From Fibrobacteria bacterium (GTDB lineage: Bacteria > Fibrobacterota > Chitinivibrionia > Chitinivibrionales > FEN-1185), in NCBI GenBank assembly GCA_037447435.1, contig JBBIGR010000014.1, positions 37,178-101,177 of the forward strand: 64,000 bases of DNA, read 5' to 3'. Shown here piece after piece: positions 41,262 to 58,290 of this stretch. The notes under the pieces are model-generated. The model saw only the letters and a list, made by a program, of their open reading frames with translations, searched no databases and was not told the DNA's origin. The translations under genes and the position numbers were made by a program. Numbering within the stretch: position 1 is the first letter of the stretch; every line of letters starts with the position of its first letter.

Positions 41262-41286
41262 ATAGTTTATAAATATTATAAACTAT
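41262..41286. promoter_or_regulatory. Putative Rrf2-type operator upstream of transsulfuration genes
   Basis: Perfect ATAGTTTATAA-ata-TTATAAACTAT (11-3-11). Confidence 0.6.
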
Positions 41287-41361: not shown

Positions 41362-42516
41362 ATGAATAAAAATCAAGGCAATATTGCAACTAAGCTTTGT
41401 CAGGTCGGTTTGTGCACAGACGAAAAAACCGGTGCTATCAGCACGCCCATTTACCAAACAGCGACGTTTAGGCATATTGGTCCCGGACAATCTACGGGAT
41501 ACGATTATTCACGCACCTTAAATCCCACTCGAGAAGTGCTTGAAAAAGAAATAGCAGGCCTGGAAAACGGCGATTGCGGTTTTGCTTTTTCATCGGGCAT
41601 GGCGGCAATCGCAGCAGTCGTCGGAATTTTTAAACCCGGCGATACCATCCTGGCTTCGGACGATTTATACGGCGGTACATACCGATTTTTCGAAACATTT
41701 GCCAGGCCTCACGGAATAAAAACGTTATATGTGGATACAACGAAAGACAAAGAAGTTGCCGCCCTTTTTTCAAAAGAGAAAATTGCCGGCATATTCATTG
41801 AAACACCCACAAACCCGATTATGAAAATTACCGATGTAAAAAAAATGGCTGCGCTCGCAAAAAACAACAATGCGATCGTCATTGTCGATAACACGTTCAT
41901 GACGCCGCTGTTGCAACAGCCTATCGGCCTCGGTGCGGATGTGGTGATTCATAGCGGAACAAAATTCCTTGCCGGCCACAACGACACCCTGTGCGGACTT
42001 GTGGTGACAAAATCGCAGAAACTTTCGGAACGGATCGGTTTCATTCAAAATGCTTCGGGCGGCATATTGTCGCCGTTCGATTCCTGGCTTGTTTTGCGCG
42101 GCATCAAAACGCTTTCCGTTCGCCTTGAACGTTCACAGAATAACGCGCAAAAAATCGCAACGTGGCTTTCCCGGCATCCTCATGTTGTCAACACCTACTA
42201 TCCGGGCCTTGTTTCGCATCCCGGAGCCGCGCTCCACAAAAAGCAAGCAAGCGGACCCGGGGCCATCATTTCATTTCGCGTTACCAATGCAAAACGGGCA
42301 CTCTCGATATTACGAAACGTCAAAGTCATATCGTTTGCCGAGAGTCTGGGCGGCGTTGAAACGCTTATAACCCATCCGTCGCGGCAAACGCACACCGACA
42401 TTCCTTTGACAACCCGACAATGCCTCGGCATTTCCGACGATTTGCTCCGGCTGTCGGTAGGCATAGAACACGTTGACGATCTTATCGCAGACCTTAAAAC
42501 CGCTTTGGAGAAATAA
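41362..42516 (+). CDS. Cystathionine gamma-synthase-like PLP enzyme (MetI/MetB type)
   Basis: YDYSRTLNPTR, DLYGGTYR, ETPTNP, HSGTKFLAGHND, FAESLGGVE. Confidence 0.85.
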   Translation: MNKNQGNIATKLCQVGLCTDEKTGAISTPIYQTATFRHIGPGQSTGYDYSRTLNPTREVLEKEIAGLENGDCGFAFSSGMAAIAAVVGIFKPGDTILASDDLYGGTYRFFETFARPHGIKTLYVDTTKDKEVAALFSKEKIAGIFIETPTNPIMKITDVKKMAALAKNNNAIVIVDNTFMTPLLQQPIGLGADVVIHSGTKFLAGHNDTLCGLVVTKSQKLSERIGFIQNASGGILSPFDSWLVLRGIKTLSVRLERSQNNAQKIATWLSRHPHVVNTYYPGLVSHPGAALHKKQASGPGAIISFRVTNAKRALSILRNVKVISFAESLGGVETLITHPSRQTHTDIPLTTRQCLGISDDLLRLSVGIEHVDDLIADLKTALEK

Positions 42517-42519
42517 TTT

Positions 42520-43680
42520 ATGGACATACATAACCCTGTCAATTACGATACGTCTATATTACACGGCGCTGCAGACCGGGACGAAGTAACGGGCGCGCTT
42601 TCCATTCCAATTTATAATGCCTCGACATTTCACCAAAAGGACATTTCCGTTCGTCAGGAATTCGATTACGGCCGTTCGGGAAACCCCACGCGCAAAGCAT
42701 TGGAAGAAACGCTTGCAGGACTTGAAAGCGGGCATAGCGCCTATGCGTTTTCTTCCGGCATGTCGGCCATACACGCCGCAATAACCGCATTTGTAAAGGC
42801 TGGAGACCACATCGTGGTTACCCGGGACATTTACGGAGGTTCGTACCGCTTTCTTACGGGATTTTTGTCCAAATTCGGCGTCACGCATACGTTTGTCGAC
42901 ACCACGGACCCGAAAAATGCTTTAGCAGCCATCCAGCCCAACACGAAAATCCTGTTCCTCGAAAGTCCGTCAAACCCTCTGTTGAAAATCACGGACATAG
43001 TCGCGCATGTAAAAATCGCAAAAGACCACGACCTTGTGTCTATGATAGATAATACTTTTCTGTCGCCGTATTTTTTGCGTCCTCTTGAACTCGGTATTGA
43101 CATAAGTATTCACAGTGCGACAAAATTTTTAGGCGGTCATAGCGATCTGATCGCCGGTGCCGTTATTGCAAAAACGAAAGATTTGGCAAGTTCTGTTCAC
43201 TATGTACAAAACACCTGCGGTGCGGTCCTTTCGCCACAGGATTCCTGGCTTCTTTTACGCGGCATCAAAACGCTTGCTGCCCGCATGACGCATCAGCAAA
43301 AAACAGCCCTTACCGTGGCGGCATGGCTGCAAAAACAGTCATGGGTAAAATCCGTTTTTTTCCCCGGCCTCCAAACCCATCCCGGCCATAATATCCTTAC
43401 CGGTCAAGCACACGGATTCGGCTGCGTACTATCATTTGAAACCGATACCACCGAACGGTTGAACACGCTTGTCAAAAACGTGAAAATCCTTACTGTCGCG
43501 GTCAGCCTGGGCGGGGTCGAAAGCATTTTATCGTTTCCGGCAAAAATGTCGCATGCCGCAATGCCGGCTTCGACCCGGGCCCAACTCGGCATTTCCGACA
43601 CTTTGCTCAGGTTGTCGATTGGCCTTGAAAACGCGGACGATATTATCGCGGATTTGGACAATAGCGCAAAGCCGTCGTAG
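42520..43680 (+). CDS. Cystathionine beta-lyase-like PLP enzyme (MetC type)
   Basis: YGRSGNPTR, ESPSNP, HSATKFLGGHSD, AVSLGGVES; tandem with MetI-like gene as in Bacillus metIC. Confidence 0.82.
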   Translation: MDIHNPVNYDTSILHGAADRDEVTGALSIPIYNASTFHQKDISVRQEFDYGRSGNPTRKALEETLAGLESGHSAYAFSSGMSAIHAAITAFVKAGDHIVVTRDIYGGSYRFLTGFLSKFGVTHTFVDTTDPKNALAAIQPNTKILFLESPSNPLLKITDIVAHVKIAKDHDLVSMIDNTFLSPYFLRPLELGIDISIHSATKFLGGHSDLIAGAVIAKTKDLASSVHYVQNTCGAVLSPQDSWLLLRGIKTLAARMTHQQKTALTVAAWLQKQSWVKSVFFPGLQTHPGHNILTGQAHGFGCVLSFETDTTERLNTLVKNVKILTVAVSLGGVESILSFPAKMSHAAMPASTRAQLGISDTLLRLSIGLENADDIIADLDNSAKPS

Positions 43681-53023: not shown

Positions 53024-53124
53024 CAACAATAGTATAACTTTGCTGCGTTATATGCAATCCAGTGGAATTATTTTTCTTTTTCAAATTAGGTTTTGAAAAA
53101 CGTTTCACTTTCGAAAGAATTATT

Positions 53125-53631
53125 TTGAACAACAATAAAAACATCGTCCTCATCGGTATGCCGGGTTCAGGTAAAACAACAATCGGAAAAATGCTCGCGG
53201 TATCGCTCGACAAAGCCTTCCTCGATACGGATAATCTTATTGAAAAACAGTACGGCGCGACTTTGCAGACTATAATCAATCATTTCGACTATTTGACGTT
53301 GCGCCAGTACGAGGAAACGGTCATAACCGGCCTACAGGTTCAAAATTCGGTCATAGCGACCGGGGGTAGCGCCGTATATTCCGAAAAATCGATGGCTGTA
53401 TTGTCCAAAAACAGCAAAATCGTTTATTTACAATTACAAATACCCGACCTTCTCAAACGCATTAGGAACTTTCAAACAAGGGGAATTGCCAAGGCTGCCG
53501 ATCAAACCTTTGAAGATTTATTCAAAGAACGGGAATTACTGTATAAAAAATACGCCAACATTTCCATAAATTGCGAGGGCAAGGGCAAAACTCAGATTTT
53601 AAACGAACTATTGACTAAATTAACGTACTGA
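53125..53631 (+). CDS. aroK: Shikimate kinase (probable TTG start)
   Basis: LIGMPGSGKTT, DTD, IATGGS, RELLYKKYA. Confidence 0.92.
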   Translation: MNNNKNIVLIGMPGSGKTTIGKMLAVSLDKAFLDTDNLIEKQYGATLQTIINHFDYLTLRQYEETVITGLQVQNSVIATGGSAVYSEKSMAVLSKNSKIVYLQLQIPDLLKRIRNFQTRGIAKAADQTFEDLFKERELLYKKYANISINCEGKGKTQILNELLTKLTY

Positions 53632-53734: not shown

Positions 53735-53792
53735 TTGACATGCTTTCTTTTTTTGGTTATATTTTTAAATGTTGATAAACATTGTCGACATT
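53735..53792 (+). promoter_or_regulatory. cysK promoter with downstream Rrf2-type operator
   Basis: TTGACA-N17-TATATT (53735-53763); AATGTTGATAA-aca-TTGTCGACATT (53768-53792). Confidence 0.75.
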
Positions 53793-53840
53793 AAATCGTA
53801 ATAATAGTATGAATCACTTTTATACCTTAGGGAGGTATCT

Positions 53841-54785
53841 ATGAAAATCGCAACAGACATTACCAAGCTTATCGGCAAGACTCCTTTGGTTAGGATTAAT
53901 CGTCTGAATCAGGGCAGTAAAGCTGAGGTCGCAGCTAAACTCGAATTTTTCAATCCATTGTCCAGCGTTAAAGACAGAATTGGCTTGGCAATGATCGAAG
54001 ATGCTGAAAAAAAAGGGCTGTTAAACAAAGACTCCGTAATAATTGAACCGACCAGCGGCAACACCGGTATAGCGCTTGCGTTCGTTGCAGCCGCAAAAGG
54101 ATATAAGCTTGTTCTTACTATGCCGGAAACCATGAGCGTTGAACGAAGAAAAATCCTCAAATCGCTGGGTGCAGAAATTGTCTTGACCGAGGGCCCAAAA
54201 GGAATGAAGGGGGCGGTTGCAAAAGCCGAAGAATTGGCTGCATCTACACCAAATTCGTTTTTACCGCAGCAATTCAACAATCCAGCGAACCCGGAGATTC
54301 ATAAGAAAACCACTGCCGAAGAAATTTGGGAAGATACAGATGGAAAGGTCGACATTTTTATTGCAGGCGTGGGCACAGGCGGAACGATTACCGGTGTCGG
54401 TGAGGTACTTAAAAATAAAAAACCCGGGGTACAGATAATTGCCGTAGAACCGGAAAAATCTCCCGTATTATCAGGCGGCGCAGCAGGACCCCATAAAATT
54501 CAGGGAATCGGAGCTGGATTTGTCCCCGGCGTATTCAAAAAAGATTTTATCAATGAAATCATCAAGGTAAAAGAAGAAGACGCAGGTGCCACAGCCCGGT
54601 CTCTTGCGAAAAAAGAGGGTGTTTTCGTTGGGATTTCCTCCGGTGCGGCATTATGGGCCGCGTTACAAGTGGCCAAAAGGGAAGAAAATGCCGGCAAGCT
54701 TATTGTCGTGGTATTGCCCGATACCGGCGAACGGTATTTGAGCACCTGGTTGTGGGACGAACCGGTAGAAACTCCCAGTGTTTAA
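53841..54785 (+). CDS. cysK: Cysteine synthase A
   Basis: SSVKDRIG (PLP Lys), [31 protein letters not shown]. Confidence 0.97.
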
Positions 54786-54829
54786 TTTGAAAATCAGGTA
54801 TTTTACATAAATAAAAAGAAAGGTATATA

Positions 54830-56119
54830 ATGAACGACAAAGCATATCATTTCGAAACTCTTGCACTCCATGCGGGCCAGACCGTTGATGAAACATTGGC
54901 CCGGGCCATTCCCATTCACCGAACGACCTCGTTCCTCTTTAAAAGCACGGAACATGCGTCGAACCTGTTTGCTTTAAAGGAATTGGGAAACATTTATACG
55001 CGCCTGGGAAACCCGACCAACGATTCGTTGGAACAACGTATTTCCCAACTCGAAGGCGGGGCGGCTTCCGTTGCCTTTGCAAGCGGTACTGCCGCGATTT
55101 TCAATACGGTCATTACCCTTGCGCAAGCAGGAGACGAAATCGTATCTGCAAACAATTTATACGGCGGCACATACACGCAATTCGATGCCATTCTTCCCAA
55201 GCTGGGCATCACGACACGGTTTGTCGAACCGCATGATATTGCCGGTTTCGAAAAAGCGATAACGCCCAAAACCCGGGCCATTTTCATTGAAACCATCGGC
55301 AACCCCAAACTCGATTTTACCGATGTTGCGGTAATCGCCGCAGTCGCACATAAAAACGGGCTGCCACTTATCGTGGACGGGACTTTCACCACGCCGTATT
55401 TGCTTCGCACCATCGAATATGGCGCCGACATCGTGATCAACTCGTTGACAAAATGGATTGGCGGCCACGGCACTGCGATCGGCGGCATCGTCACCGATGC
55501 GGGAAAATTCGATTGGAAAGCCGGGCGGCATTCCCTTTTCACCGAGCCGGATGAAAATTATCACGGCCTCCGCTGGGCAATTGATTTACCGGAACCTTTG
55601 GCGCCCATAGCGTTTGCACTACGCTTGCGAACCGTCCCATTGCGCAACCTCGGCGCTTGTCTCGCACCGGATAATGCCTGGGTGTTTTTGCAAGGACTGG
55701 AATCGTTACCGGTACGCATGACCCGTCATAGCGAAAACGCGCAGAAAATAGCGGAACATCTGGCGACGCATCCGAAGGTTTCCTGGGTCCGGTATCCGGG
55801 TCTTAAATCCGACCCTGCGCATGCGCTTGCAAGCAAATACCTTACAAACGGATTCGGCGGCATGGTCGTATTCGGCATCAAGGGCGGCTTCGACGCAGCT
55901 GTCAAGGCTATAGACAATATAAAACTTTTTTCGCATCTTGCCAATGTCGGCGATGCGAAAAGCCTGATATTGCATCCGGCCAGCACCTCGCATTCCCAAC
56001 TTACCGAGCAACAGCAGCGCGAGGGCGGCCTCACGCCGGACCTGATTCGTTTGTCTATTGGTCTGGAACATATCGACGATTTAATCGCGGCGCTTGACGA
56101 CGCGCTGGCATTAGCATGA
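54830..56119 (+). CDS. metY: O-acetylhomoserine/O-acetylserine sulfhydrylase
   Basis: GNIYTRLGNPT, SLTKWIGGHG, HLANVGDAKSL.LHPASTSH. Confidence 0.93.
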   Translation: MNDKAYHFETLALHAGQTVDETLARAIPIHRTTSFLFKSTEHASNLFALKELGNIYTRLGNPTNDSLEQRISQLEGGAASVAFASGTAAIFNTVITLAQAGDEIVSANNLYGGTYTQFDAILPKLGITTRFVEPHDIAGFEKAITPKTRAIFIETIGNPKLDFTDVAVIAAVAHKNGLPLIVDGTFTTPYLLRTIEYGADIVINSLTKWIGGHGTAIGGIVTDAGKFDWKAGRHSLFTEPDENYHGLRWAIDLPEPLAPIAFALRLRTVPLRNLGACLAPDNAWVFLQGLESLPVRMTRHSENAQKIAEHLATHPKVSWVRYPGLKSDPAHALASKYLTNGFGGMVVFGIKGGFDAAVKAIDNIKLFSHLANVGDAKSLILHPASTSHSQLTEQQQREGGLTPDLIRLSIGLEHIDDLIAALDDALALA

Positions 56120-56139
56120 TTTTGGGCTAAGCTCACGAC

Positions 56140-56175
56140 AAAACCTCCCTCTTTTGCAAAAAGAGGGAGGTTTTT
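56140..56175 (+). terminator. Perfect 16-bp hairpin / terminator inside the cysK operon
   Basis: AAAACCTCCCTCTTTT-gca-AAAAGAGGGAGGTTTT(T). Confidence 0.75.
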
Positions 56176-56181
56176 CCAGGA

Positions 56182-56457
56182 ATGCGTAACGGCATGATAA
56201 CAAAAAAACTTATTGTCAAGAACTCACACGGCATTCATGCCCGGGTCGCTTTAAAGGTTGCACAAACGTGCCAAAACAATTCTTCGGAAGTGACGGTTTG
56301 CAACGGTTGCAATAAGGCGAACGGGTGCTCGCTTTTGGAACTGTTGATGCTCGGTGTGGAGCAGGGCTCGGAAATCGAAATCATCGCGCGGGGCGGCGAA
56401 GAGGAAAAAAGCATAAAAGAACTTTCTTACATTTTTGATGGAGGGTCGGGAATATAG
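56182..56457 (+). CDS. HPr-family phosphocarrier paralogue, Cys-rich, with C-terminal GGSGI tail
   Basis: NSHGIHAR (His15), NGCSLLELLMLG (Ser46 region), GSEIEIIARG; start may be 56194. Confidence 0.9.
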   Translation: MRNGMITKKLIVKNSHGIHARVALKVAQTCQNNSSEVTVCNGCNKANGCSLLELLMLGVEQGSEIEIIARGGEEEKSIKELSYIFDGGSGI

Positions 56458-56892
56458 ATGAAATTGTCAACAAAATGCCGTTACGGCCTGCGTGCGATGC
56501 TTGAACTTGCCCGACATTACAATGACGGGCCGGTAAACAGGAAAACCATTACCGAAGCACAAAATATTTCCAAAGCGTATTTGGAAAACATTCTTACGAC
56601 GCTTCGCGAACAAAACCTCATTCGGACCACGCGCGGCGCCAACGGCGGTTTTGTCCTCCAAGTTGCACCAGAAAAGATAACCGTTTTCCAGATTGTTAAT
56701 GCACTTGAAGGTTCTATTGCGCCTGTGGATTGCGTGGAAACAGAATCGGCATGCGAAAATGCGGGACCTTGCGCGGCAAGGCAGGTTTGGAAAAAACTGT
56801 ATGACGCCCAAGTCGCCACATTGTCTGCCATTACACTTGCCGATGTCCTGGATATGGATATAGCGTCGCATGGCGCGAACTACGTTATTTAA
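56458..56892 (+). CDS. Rrf2-family regulator (IscR/CymR-like)
   Basis: STKCRYGLRAM, YLENIL, RGANGGF; C-X6-C-X5-C; C-terminal NYVI. Confidence 0.93.
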   Translation: MKLSTKCRYGLRAMLELARHYNDGPVNRKTITEAQNISKAYLENILTTLREQNLIRTTRGANGGFVLQVAPEKITVFQIVNALEGSIAPVDCVETESACENAGPCAARQVWKKLYDAQVATLSAITLADVLDMDIASHGANYVI

Positions 56893-56895
56893 CGT

Positions 56896-57654
56896 ATGAG
56901 AAGAATCTTATCCGAGGACCAGCTCACCCGTTATAATCGGCAAATCATTTTAAAAGAAATGGGACAAACCGGCCAGGACAAGCTCCTGTCGGGAAGCGTT
57001 CTGGTCATCGGAGCCGGAGGACTCGGCTCCCCCGCAGCGCTGTACCTCGCGGCCGCCGGAATCGGCACCATCGGTATTGCGGATTACGACAATGTCGATC
57101 CTTCTAATCTGCAAAGGCAAATCATCCATAACGAGTCGAGCGTCGGAACGCACAAATCGGAATCGGCGAAAAAATCGATACTCGCCATTAACTCGGATAT
57201 TTCCGTTAAAACCTATTTTGAAAAAACTACCGCCGACACCCTTGTGGACATTATCAATGGATTCGATTTTGTCATAGACGCGACGGACAATTTCGATTCG
57301 AAATTTTTCATTAACGATACCTGCGTCAAGATCGGCGTCCCGTTTTCCCATGCGGGCGTCTTGCAGTTTCACGGACAAACGACCACCGTTGTCCCCAAAA
57401 AGAGTGCGTGCTACCGATGCGTATTTTGTCGGCCGCCGCAAAACGCCCTAGAAACCTGTTCTGAAGCCGGAATCCTTGGTCCGGTTGCGGGGGTTATCGG
57501 CTCTATTCAGGCGACCGAGGCCATAAAATATCTCATCGGAGCGGGCGACTTGCTCGTTAATCAACTTCTTACATACGATGCATTATCCATGAATTTCAGG
57601 AAAATTGAAACCAGGAAAAACCCCGATTGTGCGGCCTGCAGAGGCAATGGCTAA
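56896..57654 (+). CDS. ThiF/MoeB/HesA-family adenylyltransferase
   Basis: RYNRQI, GAGGLG, SNLQRQ, DATDNF, CYRC, TCSEAG, CAAC. Confidence 0.93.
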   Translation: MRRILSEDQLTRYNRQIILKEMGQTGQDKLLSGSVLVIGAGGLGSPAALYLAAAGIGTIGIADYDNVDPSNLQRQIIHNESSVGTHKSESAKKSILAINSDISVKTYFEKTTADTLVDIINGFDFVIDATDNFDSKFFINDTCVKIGVPFSHAGVLQFHGQTTTVVPKKSACYRCVFCRPPQNALETCSEAGILGPVAGVIGSIQATEAIKYLIGAGDLLVNQLLTYDALSMNFRKIETRKNPDCAACRGNG

Positions 57655-57695: not shown

Positions 57696-58016
57696 ATGGA
57701 TTTAAATCGAATTGTTCGAGATTGCACTGGATTCGATTGGGATGAGTTCAATATCCACAAAAACTGGGATAAACATCAGGTTTCCTGGTGGGAGTGTGAA
57801 GAGGTCTTTCTCGGCGAACCCCTTCTTCTTGCGGAGGACATAAAGCATTCTCAAAAAGAAAAAAGATATTATTCATTAGGAATTTCGGATGAGGGCAGAA
57901 AATTGTTTATAAGCTTTACCATACGCGGACATAAAATACGACCGATTTCTGCTCGGGATATGAGTAAAAAAGAAAGAAAAATATATGCAGACTCAAAAAT
58001 TGAAACCGATTCCTAA
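57696..58016 (+). CDS. brnT: BrnT-family toxin
   Basis: FDWDE.N..KN..KH.V...E.EEVF, HSQKEKR, IRPISAR. Confidence 0.9.
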   Translation: MDLNRIVRDCTGFDWDEFNIHKNWDKHQVSWWECEEVFLGEPLLLAEDIKHSQKEKRYYSLGISDEGRKLFISFTIRGHKIRPISARDMSKKERKIYADSKIETDS

Positions 58017-58290
58017 ATTTAAAAAAGAAGATGAAGAACGTGAATTTTGGGCTACTCACGATTCCGCCGAACATTTGGATTGGTCAAAAGGCAGGAAAAT
58101 GCGTTTTTCCAAACTTCGACCTTCAGTAAAAAGCATCTCGTTGCGTTTGCCCGAAGCCTTGCTTGAGAGAATTAAAATTCTGGCAAATAAGCATGATATT
58201 CCCTATCAATCGCTTATGAAAGTTTATTTATCCGAACGTGTGGAAAAAGAAATTGTAGGTAGGCATATTGTTCCCGAGCAGAAGGCATAA
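57985..58290 (+). CDS. brnA: BrnA/CopG-like antitoxin
   Basis: PKFKKEDEEREFWATHD; RHH SISLRLP...IPYQSL; overlaps toxin gene. Confidence 0.88.
   Translation: MQTQKLKPIPKFKKEDEEREFWATHDSAEHLDWSKGRKMRFSKLRPSVKSISLRLPEALLERIKILANKHDIPYQSLMKVYLSERVEKEIVGRHIVPEQKA

Follow-up and report, generated by a model that had tools for sequence, protein, structure and literature searches.

What is a protein with the fold of the phosphocarrier HPr doing among genes of cysteine and homocysteine synthesis, and why does its chain end in a free isoleucine tail of the type by which other proteins enter the active site of the enzyme CysK? The question is raised by a cluster of five genes (cysK, metY, an HPr-like gene, an Rrf2-family regulator gene and moeB) in a 64,000-nucleotide stretch of contig JBBIGR010000014.1 of a Fibrobacteria bacterium (assembly GCA_037447435.1), hereafter called the window, to which all positions without a label refer; the labels L, G and C denote loci, genomes and contigs, where these need to be told apart. 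We show here that a free, short and conserved [FL]-x-x-G-x-G-I C-terminus on an HPr fold travels with cysK, metY and Rrf2 genes. By analogy with known complexes, docking of this tail on CysK is likely, whichever of the two partners acts on the other, and we lean slightly towards the view that the HPr paralogue regulates by docking on CysK, in competition with an Fe-S-type Rrf2 protein, and is not a phosphocarrier for sugar transport. Tail docking of CysE, CymR and CdiA on CysK is already known; what would be new is a CysK-type plug tail on an HPr fold.

In the known complexes, the flexible tail of CysE enters the CysK active site, its terminal Ile being critical and O-acetylserine dissociating the complex, and both CdiA-CT and EGL-9 dock on CysK-family proteins by the same Ile-tail means, CdiA-CT being active only when CysK-bound (as described in PMC5562914). 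The YGDGI pentapeptide of Salmonella is reported to bind StCysK with a dissociation constant (KD) of 11.8 uM, its binding to CysM being about 400-fold weaker (PMC9547175). In Staphylococcus aureus, the regulator CymR (tail ...YMFYI) binds CysK via its tail (25 nM for a decapeptide), needs CysK for DNA binding and is stabilised by it, CymR being reported in the same source as confined to Gram-positives (bioRxiv 10.1101/2024.09.19.614015). A literature search, which covered few subscription journals and had supplements outside its scope, found no published link between HPr and CysK.

Within a single genome such tails are within chance: 1 of 4209 open reading frames (ORFs) ends in G-x-G-I (about 1.5 expected) and 7 end in Y-x-I (about 10 expected), so that the evidence is the conservation across homologues, which are 27-69% identical to the window HPr. 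The terminal G-x-G-I is present in 56 of 154 homologues in a first collection and in 105 of 224 in a larger one, with the consensus [FL]-x-x-G-x-G-I (Phe or Leu at position -7 in 105/105 tail proteins, Asp or Asn at -5 in 75/105). Since the homologues were collected with tail-bearing queries, and the collection is therefore biased towards tails, the subfamily tests were rerun with the tail removed. In a tree based on 76 core columns, all 105 tail proteins lie within a clade of 120 (support 0.87), and in a tree of 304 sequences, again on core columns, the best clade (169 members, support 0.84) has 131 of the 133 tail proteins, the smallest split with all 133 having 205 members and none of the 30 canonical HPrs of the phylum inside. 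Additionally, a pair of core-only hidden Markov models sorted held-out proteins correctly in 66/67 cases with a tail and in 70/75 without. The sequence-only reading had proposed that the HPr-like and the Rrf2 proteins both reach CysK by their C-termini, and the terminal Ile is indeed conserved in syntenic HPr homologues, G-x-G-I being fixed in a separable subfamily beside cysK, metY and Rrf2 in three phyla. The subfamily occurs in several groups of uncultured bacteria, Omnitrophota and Elusimicrobia being among its named members. The window tail itself, the proposed CysK-docking peptide (F-D-G-G-S-G-I; codons with stop at 56434-56457, plus strand), matches the Salmonella CysE pentapeptide YGDGI, with the same G-x-G-I end.

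The protein which carries this tail is a member of the HPr fold family that differs from canonical HPr, and its subfamily is undescribed. Its gene (56194-56457, plus strand) encodes 87 residues and scores over the cut-offs of PF00381 and TIGR01003 (70.8 bits against 47.9 for the latter); there is an additional in-frame ATG at 56182, and the second ATG is the start used by close homologues. The AlphaFold2 model (pLDDT 93.9) is a confident HPr fold with a helix at residues 70-81, and not a ThiS/ubiquitin-like fold; Foldseek aligns it to HPr 7FF5 with a template-modelling score of 0.91, and the ESM Atlas holds only generic HPr clusters for it (0.89). The C-terminus is disordered in the model, residues 85-87 falling below a pLDDT of 50. 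His15, Arg17 and Ser46 are kept, with Pro18 replaced by Val and Lys45 by Cys; the tail-bearing HPrs in general keep the first three residues (His15 in 131, Arg17 in 127 and Ser46 in all 133). Pro18 and Lys45 are found in only 20/133 and 2/133 of them, versus 30/30 and 28/30 of the canonical HPrs of the phylum, which were picked by a motif that contains Pro18. The genome encodes a separate canonical HPr, its HPr-family genes totalling only two. Tail-less copies of the subfamily are expanded in one genus (L170-L186 and L083, in genomes G085, G087, G111, G141 and G163), with up to 9 HPr-family matches per genome, scattered and in several cases without His15.

The company kept by the tail-bearing genes was read in 33 distinct loci with a reach of 5 kb (29 after dropping the duplicate L100, plus 4 more). 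A sulfur gene or Rrf2 lies within this reach in 26 of them, metY in 21, Rrf2 in 17, cysK in 16 and full-length moeB in 4. A scan of genome contigs with the single protein found just two loci, both of canonical HPr. A related-locus search by tight alignment yielded 7 loci, a tail-HPr being present in 6; L104, which is no true member, and L100, which duplicates the DNA of L095, were left out of the counts. Outside the phylum of the window, all 8 tail-HPr loci read from genomes adjoin metY, and 4 also cysK, in several gene orders; five of the 8 belong to the phylum of G201 and the other three to that of the Treponema genome G202. Only 1 of 21 copies of tail-less close paralogues is near cysK or metY (with flanks of about 4 kb for most), and one further HPr copy, ending in G-A-E-I, adjoins metY (L189). 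CysK is over the TIGR01139 cut-off in 14 of the 16 other tail-HPr genomes checked. In the loci listed, the neighbours of the tail-HPr included no recognisable gene of the PTS (phosphoenolpyruvate-dependent phosphotransferase system), as judged by BLAST to the five window proteins and a partial Pfam scan.

The second putative docking partner is the Rrf2-family regulator (56458-56892, plus strand; PF02082). Rrf2 proteins have been described as falling into Fe-S sensors and thiol sensors (PMC11672702). The window protein passes only the superfamily model, without reaching the IscR equivalog cut-off, and gives 120.3 bits against the CymR equivalog NF047409 (cut-off 195). Three linker cysteines (C92, C99 and C105) are invariant in 14/14 aligned Rrf2 proteins and absent from B. 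subtilis CymR (2Y75) in the alignment; the protein thus looks Fe-S-type and is not to be filed as CymR. Its tail N-Y-V-I is CymR-like, Y142 and I144 being present in at least 90% of the 14 aligned, and the protein is probably best described as an Fe-S-type Rrf2 with a CymR-like tail. The terminal GANYVI pointed out from the sequence is present, and [YF]-x-I tails are found in 17 of the 18 Rrf2 matches of the tail-HPr loci (one of the 18 being a gene counted twice, in the overlapping loci L095 and L119).

A site of this regulator may be recognised upstream of cysK. A matrix trained only on the cysK upstream sites of 8 relatives, and run on the 5-Mb genome, ranks the operator-like site at 53768-53792 third of 46 matches, and the top two also precede sulfur operons: one is found before a sulfate/thiocarboxylate operon on contig C4, which has two operator-like sites upstream, and the other at 41262-41286, before two tandem genes (41362-43680) for pyridoxal-phosphate (PLP) enzymes of Cys/Met metabolism. 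The score alone is not beyond chance, because column-shuffled matrices reach 17-26 bits versus 26-29 for the top three sites, and the evidence is where these three lie. The two PLP-enzyme genes are probably in the same regulon as the cysK cluster, and the window Rrf2 would be the protein that binds these sites. A different palindrome was seen upstream of cysK in L068, L070 and L072, before a divergent second type of Rrf2 that also ends in an Ile tail, D-Y-T-I; some genomes have two tailed Rrf2 proteins around one cysK.

All five ORFs lie co-oriented on the plus strand, as had been read from the sequence. The first gene, cysK (53841-54785), encodes an O-acetylserine sulfhydrylase A (TIGR01139, 478 bits against a cut-off of 351, the cysM model scoring below its cut-off), which retains the motifs SVKDR, TSGNT and HKIQGIG and has as its best PDB match the M. 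tuberculosis-type O-acetylserine sulfhydrylase (3ZEI/2Q3B). It is followed by metY (54830-56119), for an O-acetylhomoserine/O-acetylserine sulfhydrylase (TIGR01326, 596 bits against 495), and, after the HPr-like and Rrf2 genes, by moeB (56896-57654), for a ThiF/MoeB-family E1-like adenylyltransferase (PF00899, and NF004281 over its cut-off). The TAG-ATG junction between the HPr-like and Rrf2 genes, the 3-nt gap between Rrf2 and moeB, and both tails are present in the sequence. The idea of one strong promoter/operator for the whole cluster holds for the start of cysK, where a sigma-70-type promoter (TTGACA-17-TATATT, 53735-53763, plus strand; 11/12 consensus match) is followed, just 3' of its -10 element, by the operator-like site (no strand), which is kept in relatives, with the same spacing. 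It is too simple further in, because of a second promoter-like site that overlaps the metY start (54802-54831, plus strand; 11/12, a consensus match only) and of a stable hairpin with a short run of five U between metY and the HPr-like gene (56140-56175, plus strand; z -4.3 to -4.5), no promoter-like site being seen between this hairpin and the HPr start. A hairpin of different sequence is found at the same position in 3 of the 5 relatives folded, and the metY-HPr gap is at most 30 nt in six other loci. The hairpin may act as a partial terminator or as an mRNA-stabilising stem, lowering the output of the three downstream genes, and metY and the HPr-like gene would then be co-transcribed with a step down in level. 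On the outer flanks, a shikimate kinase gene (53062-53631) upstream of the cysK promoter was not seen to travel with the cluster, and a pair formed by a BrnT-family toxin and a CopG-type antitoxin (57696-58290), an ordinary type II toxin-antitoxin module, comes right after moeB.

The last gene of the cluster does not appear to be part of the system. Its E1-like product had been counted as a component, and we rejected moeB as a core part, since it is missing from 29/33 tail-HPr loci, occurring within 5 kb in only 4. The other E1 genes of the genome are found beside a carrier gene on C4 and beside a MoaD-like gene, and a thiS-thiG-thiH cluster on C66 has no adjacent E1 (the thiG and thiH labels come from sequence reading); moeB may thus be a co-regulated passenger, plausibly the E1 for that cluster. 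In a genome of the same genus, the moeB after Rrf2 is reduced to a 64-residue fragment (L064:8857-9051), consistent with a dispensable member. The run on C66 reads metA-cysE-thiS-thiG-thiH, with no E1 adjacent (L118, G000:C66:5304-9335), and in G123 these genes are contiguous with Rrf2-metY-cysK and a tail-HPr (L082). The operon on C4 (L117, G000:C4:172615-181314) encodes a ThiS-like carrier ending in GGG-R, an E1, a JAMM protease, DsrE2 and a TusA-like protein, as well as sulfite reductase, adenosine phosphosulfate reductase, CysD and CysN.

The HPr subfamily is not alone in having such an end. A 74-residue orphan without Pfam match, encoded in loci of the G201 phylum and on related metagenome contigs, ends in G-x-G-I in 12/12 homologues, its copies (L101:373-597, L095:13527-13760, L099:4618-4848 and L103:1885-2163) being often convergent with the tail-HPr or 3' of Rrf2. 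The tail is also carried by one DUF2292 protein (L103:4426-4620), encoded 1.2 kb upstream of cysK; nothing relevant linking DUF2292 with cysK was found in the literature. The G-x-G-I tail is a portable motif, found on unrelated small scaffolds in sulfur loci. In the C4 operon, CysN ends in D-Y-A-I and an 86-residue ORF without NCBIfam match, which we take to be DUF2061-like, ends in E-Y-T-I; both are candidates for further CysK clients. The own CysE of the genome (298 residues) lacks the terminal Ile, as do 43 of the 49 complete serine acetyltransferases (SATs) read across the order, including those of 16/17 relatives with a tail-HPr. No strict complement emerged between a CysE without tail and an HPr with one: many genomes have neither a tailed CysE nor a tail-HPr, and for this reason the missing CysE tail is permissive and no proof. 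A very large protein with a Cys/Met-metabolism PLP domain (1552 residues at L119:1857-6515; also at L098:2-2563) is encoded next to tail proteins and a 456-residue CysK/CBS-like gene.

As for phosphorylation, the sequence-only reading had coupled the cluster to the PTS through HprK. This kinase was not found in this 99.6%-complete genome and is over cut-off in only 4 of 81 genomes of the order, so that its part in the scheme falls away; an HPr regulated by HprK at Ser46, as in Crh, was rejected, and Ser46, invariant in the tail-bearing proteins, more probably has a structural role. Four Enzyme I genes of the genome score over the TIGR01417 cut-off and encode the active-site His, one of them being a long GAF-type as judged from its length and best model; a fifth Enzyme I gene is degenerate, and there are several EIIA-Ntr-like genes. 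With four such Enzyme I genes and two HPr-family genes, phosphorylation of the paralogue by Enzyme I at His15 is plausible. The five Enzyme I paralogues lie at L190-L194 (G000 contigs C50, C31, C43, C35 and C21), two of them beside response-regulator-like genes. The C-terminus of E. coli HPr lies near His15, a position which would put the phosphate at the CysK interface.

In the mechanism that we favour, the terminal Ile would plug the CysK active site as in enterobacterial CysE, inhibiting the enzyme and being displaced by O-acetylserine, a step which we consider likely. We regard it as evenly balanced whether the CysK dimer, with its two sites, would also be contested between this tail and the Y-x-I tail of the neighbouring Rrf2. 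If Rrf2 needs CysK in order to repress, like CymR, the HPr paralogue would set the derepression threshold of the three operator-bearing sulfur operons. More tentatively, since we would rather bet against it than for it, one of the four Enzyme I paralogues, and not HprK, may phosphorylate His15 and so tune the docking, and phosphoenolpyruvate/carbon or nitrogen status would thereby feed into cysteine and homocysteine synthesis; the phospho-coupling of docking is itself tentative to the same degree.

Several observations weigh against this interpretation. The monophyly of the tail proteins is imperfect, two of them lying outside the best clade on the 76-column alignment, and the subfamily is patchy (4/251 and 3/351 genomes in two other phyla). 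In seven of the 33 loci no sulfur gene lies within reach (a contig edge cuts two of these short), and metY is a commoner and usually closer neighbour than cysK (21 versus 16 of 33), which leaves room for another partner. The tail-less control is not independent, because five genomes of a single genus contribute 19 of its 21 copies, and co-presence with CysK is weak evidence, since CysK is common, being over cut-off also in 11/14 control genomes. SATs without terminal Ile occur also in genomes without tail-HPr, with no clean complement. Finally, free peptides with a Gly-rich tail bind CysK weakly (11.8 uM for YGDGI versus 25 nM for the CymR decapeptide), and HPr might for this reason lose to Rrf2 unless its body adds contacts.

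Among the alternatives, the docking may be real and the signal reversed, CysK binding changing how stable the HPr paralogue is or how well it reaches Enzyme I and EIIA partners, so that sulfur status would control a regulatory branch of the PTS. In known complexes it is indeed CysK that acts on its partner (CdiA-CT is activated, CymR stabilised), His15 and Arg17 are kept in a genome with several Enzyme I and EIIA-Ntr-like genes, and the hairpin suggests less HPr than CysK, perhaps too little to block the enzyme. We nevertheless hold this reversal to be unlikely, given that the loci listed showed no recognisable PTS gene next to the tail-HPr, and that the same tail on scaffolds without a phosphocarrier role points to the plug as the function. 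The partner could instead be MetY, either bound directly by the tail or served by an HPr from which a JAMM protease removes the Ile and which, after E1 activation, becomes a thiocarboxylate donor, as in Wolinella, where MetY is reported to use a protein thiocarboxylate (PMC8191291). Its frequency as a neighbour (21/33), often at 30 nt or less from HPr, speaks for MetY, as do the E1 gene that follows here and in 3 more relatives' loci, with one nearby (4/33 in all), and the JAMM protease of the genome. We know of no Ile-tail ligand of MetY. A carrier role sits poorly with an HPr fold that is not ThiS/ubiquitin-like, and with the residues which Ile removal would expose: G-G in only 31 of the 105 tail proteins, A-G in 51, S-G in 17 (including the window protein) and E-G in 4. 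The genome already has a ThiS-like GGG-R carrier with its own E1 and JAMM, the E1 is missing from 29/33 loci, and the immediate neighbour of HPr in L069 and L082 is cysK instead of metY; overall, we find MetY as the partner improbable.

Slightly less probable still, in our view, is that the tail is unrelated to PLP enzymes (it could be a signal of the degradation or PDZ type, or cap the structure), and that the protein is a co-regulated phosphocarrier of a regulatory PTS. Hydrophobic C-termini are commonly protease and PDZ ligands, a shared degron would explain one tail on three small scaffolds, and chance alone would give about one G-x-G-I end per genome. On this account, separate explanations would be needed for the match to the CysE end, for the restriction to sulfur loci, for the parallel Y-x-I tails of Rrf2 and CysN and for the lost sulfur synteny of the tail-less copies. 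Returning to CysK docking, a broader and somewhat doubtful extension, which we rate just below the phospho-coupling, is that CysK is a switchboard with several clients: the Fe-S-type Rrf2, CysN and small proteins would plug it via Y-x-I or G-x-G-I tails, and HPr would act as a plug gated by phosphorylation from a dedicated Enzyme I, linking the PTS (phosphoenolpyruvate or nitrogen status) to cysteine and homocysteine synthesis and to the regulon.

A few moonlighting partners of CysK are known, and the tail-HPr subfamily, if the docking is true, would add a dedicated small-protein regulator to these and, should His15 play a part, would connect the PTS directly with sulfur assimilation. A testable function is thereby offered for proteins annotated simply as HPr, for the 74-residue orphan family and for DUF2292, and a way is suggested by which lineages with a tail-less CysE could still use the CysK sensor site.

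Compared with known systems, the proposed arrangement resembles CysE-CysK (E. coli, Salmonella and Haemophilus) in the free C-terminal Ile tail, with the G-x-G-I end of Salmonella, and in the CysK-type enzyme, and differs from it in that the tail sits on an 87-residue HPr fold without catalytic role, in a genome whose own CysE has no terminal Ile. With CymR-CysK (B. subtilis and S. aureus) it shares an Rrf2 with an aromatic-x-Ile tail encoded with cysK and a conserved operator-like site before sulfur operons; unlike CymR, the window Rrf2 is below the CymR cut-off, has three linker cysteines, occurs outside Gram-positives and is accompanied by a second tail protein. In CdiA-CT(EC536)-CysK and EGL-9-CYSL-1 an unrelated protein likewise docks in a CysK-family active site by its terminal Ile (PMC5562914). 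The docking candidate is here a conserved, co-encoded small protein with a phosphocarrier fold, and not a toxin or a hydroxylase. The Wolinella pathway (HcyS/HcyF/HcyD/MetY) is similar in having metY with an E1-like gene, and the genome has on C4 an operon with carrier, E1, JAMM and sulfite reductase; the HPr paralogue, however, is not a ThiS-type carrier, and the window E1 is a second copy without a carrier beside it. Crh of B. subtilis and NPr of proteobacteria are, as here, a second HPr beside the canonical one, the contacts of the Crh/NPr type and those of HPr with Rsd, glycogen phosphorylase and FruR going through the HPr body, and Crh being without His15, unlike the tail-HPr. In all these cases (Crh, NPr, HPr-Rsd, HPr-glycogen phosphorylase and HPr-FruR; PDB 4XWJ, 9S8K, 7X7H and 1ZVV) an HPr fold regulates a protein outside the PTS, but none is known to carry a docking peptide at its C-terminus or to be tied to sulfur genes, features which the subfamily described here combines with an HprK that is mostly absent.

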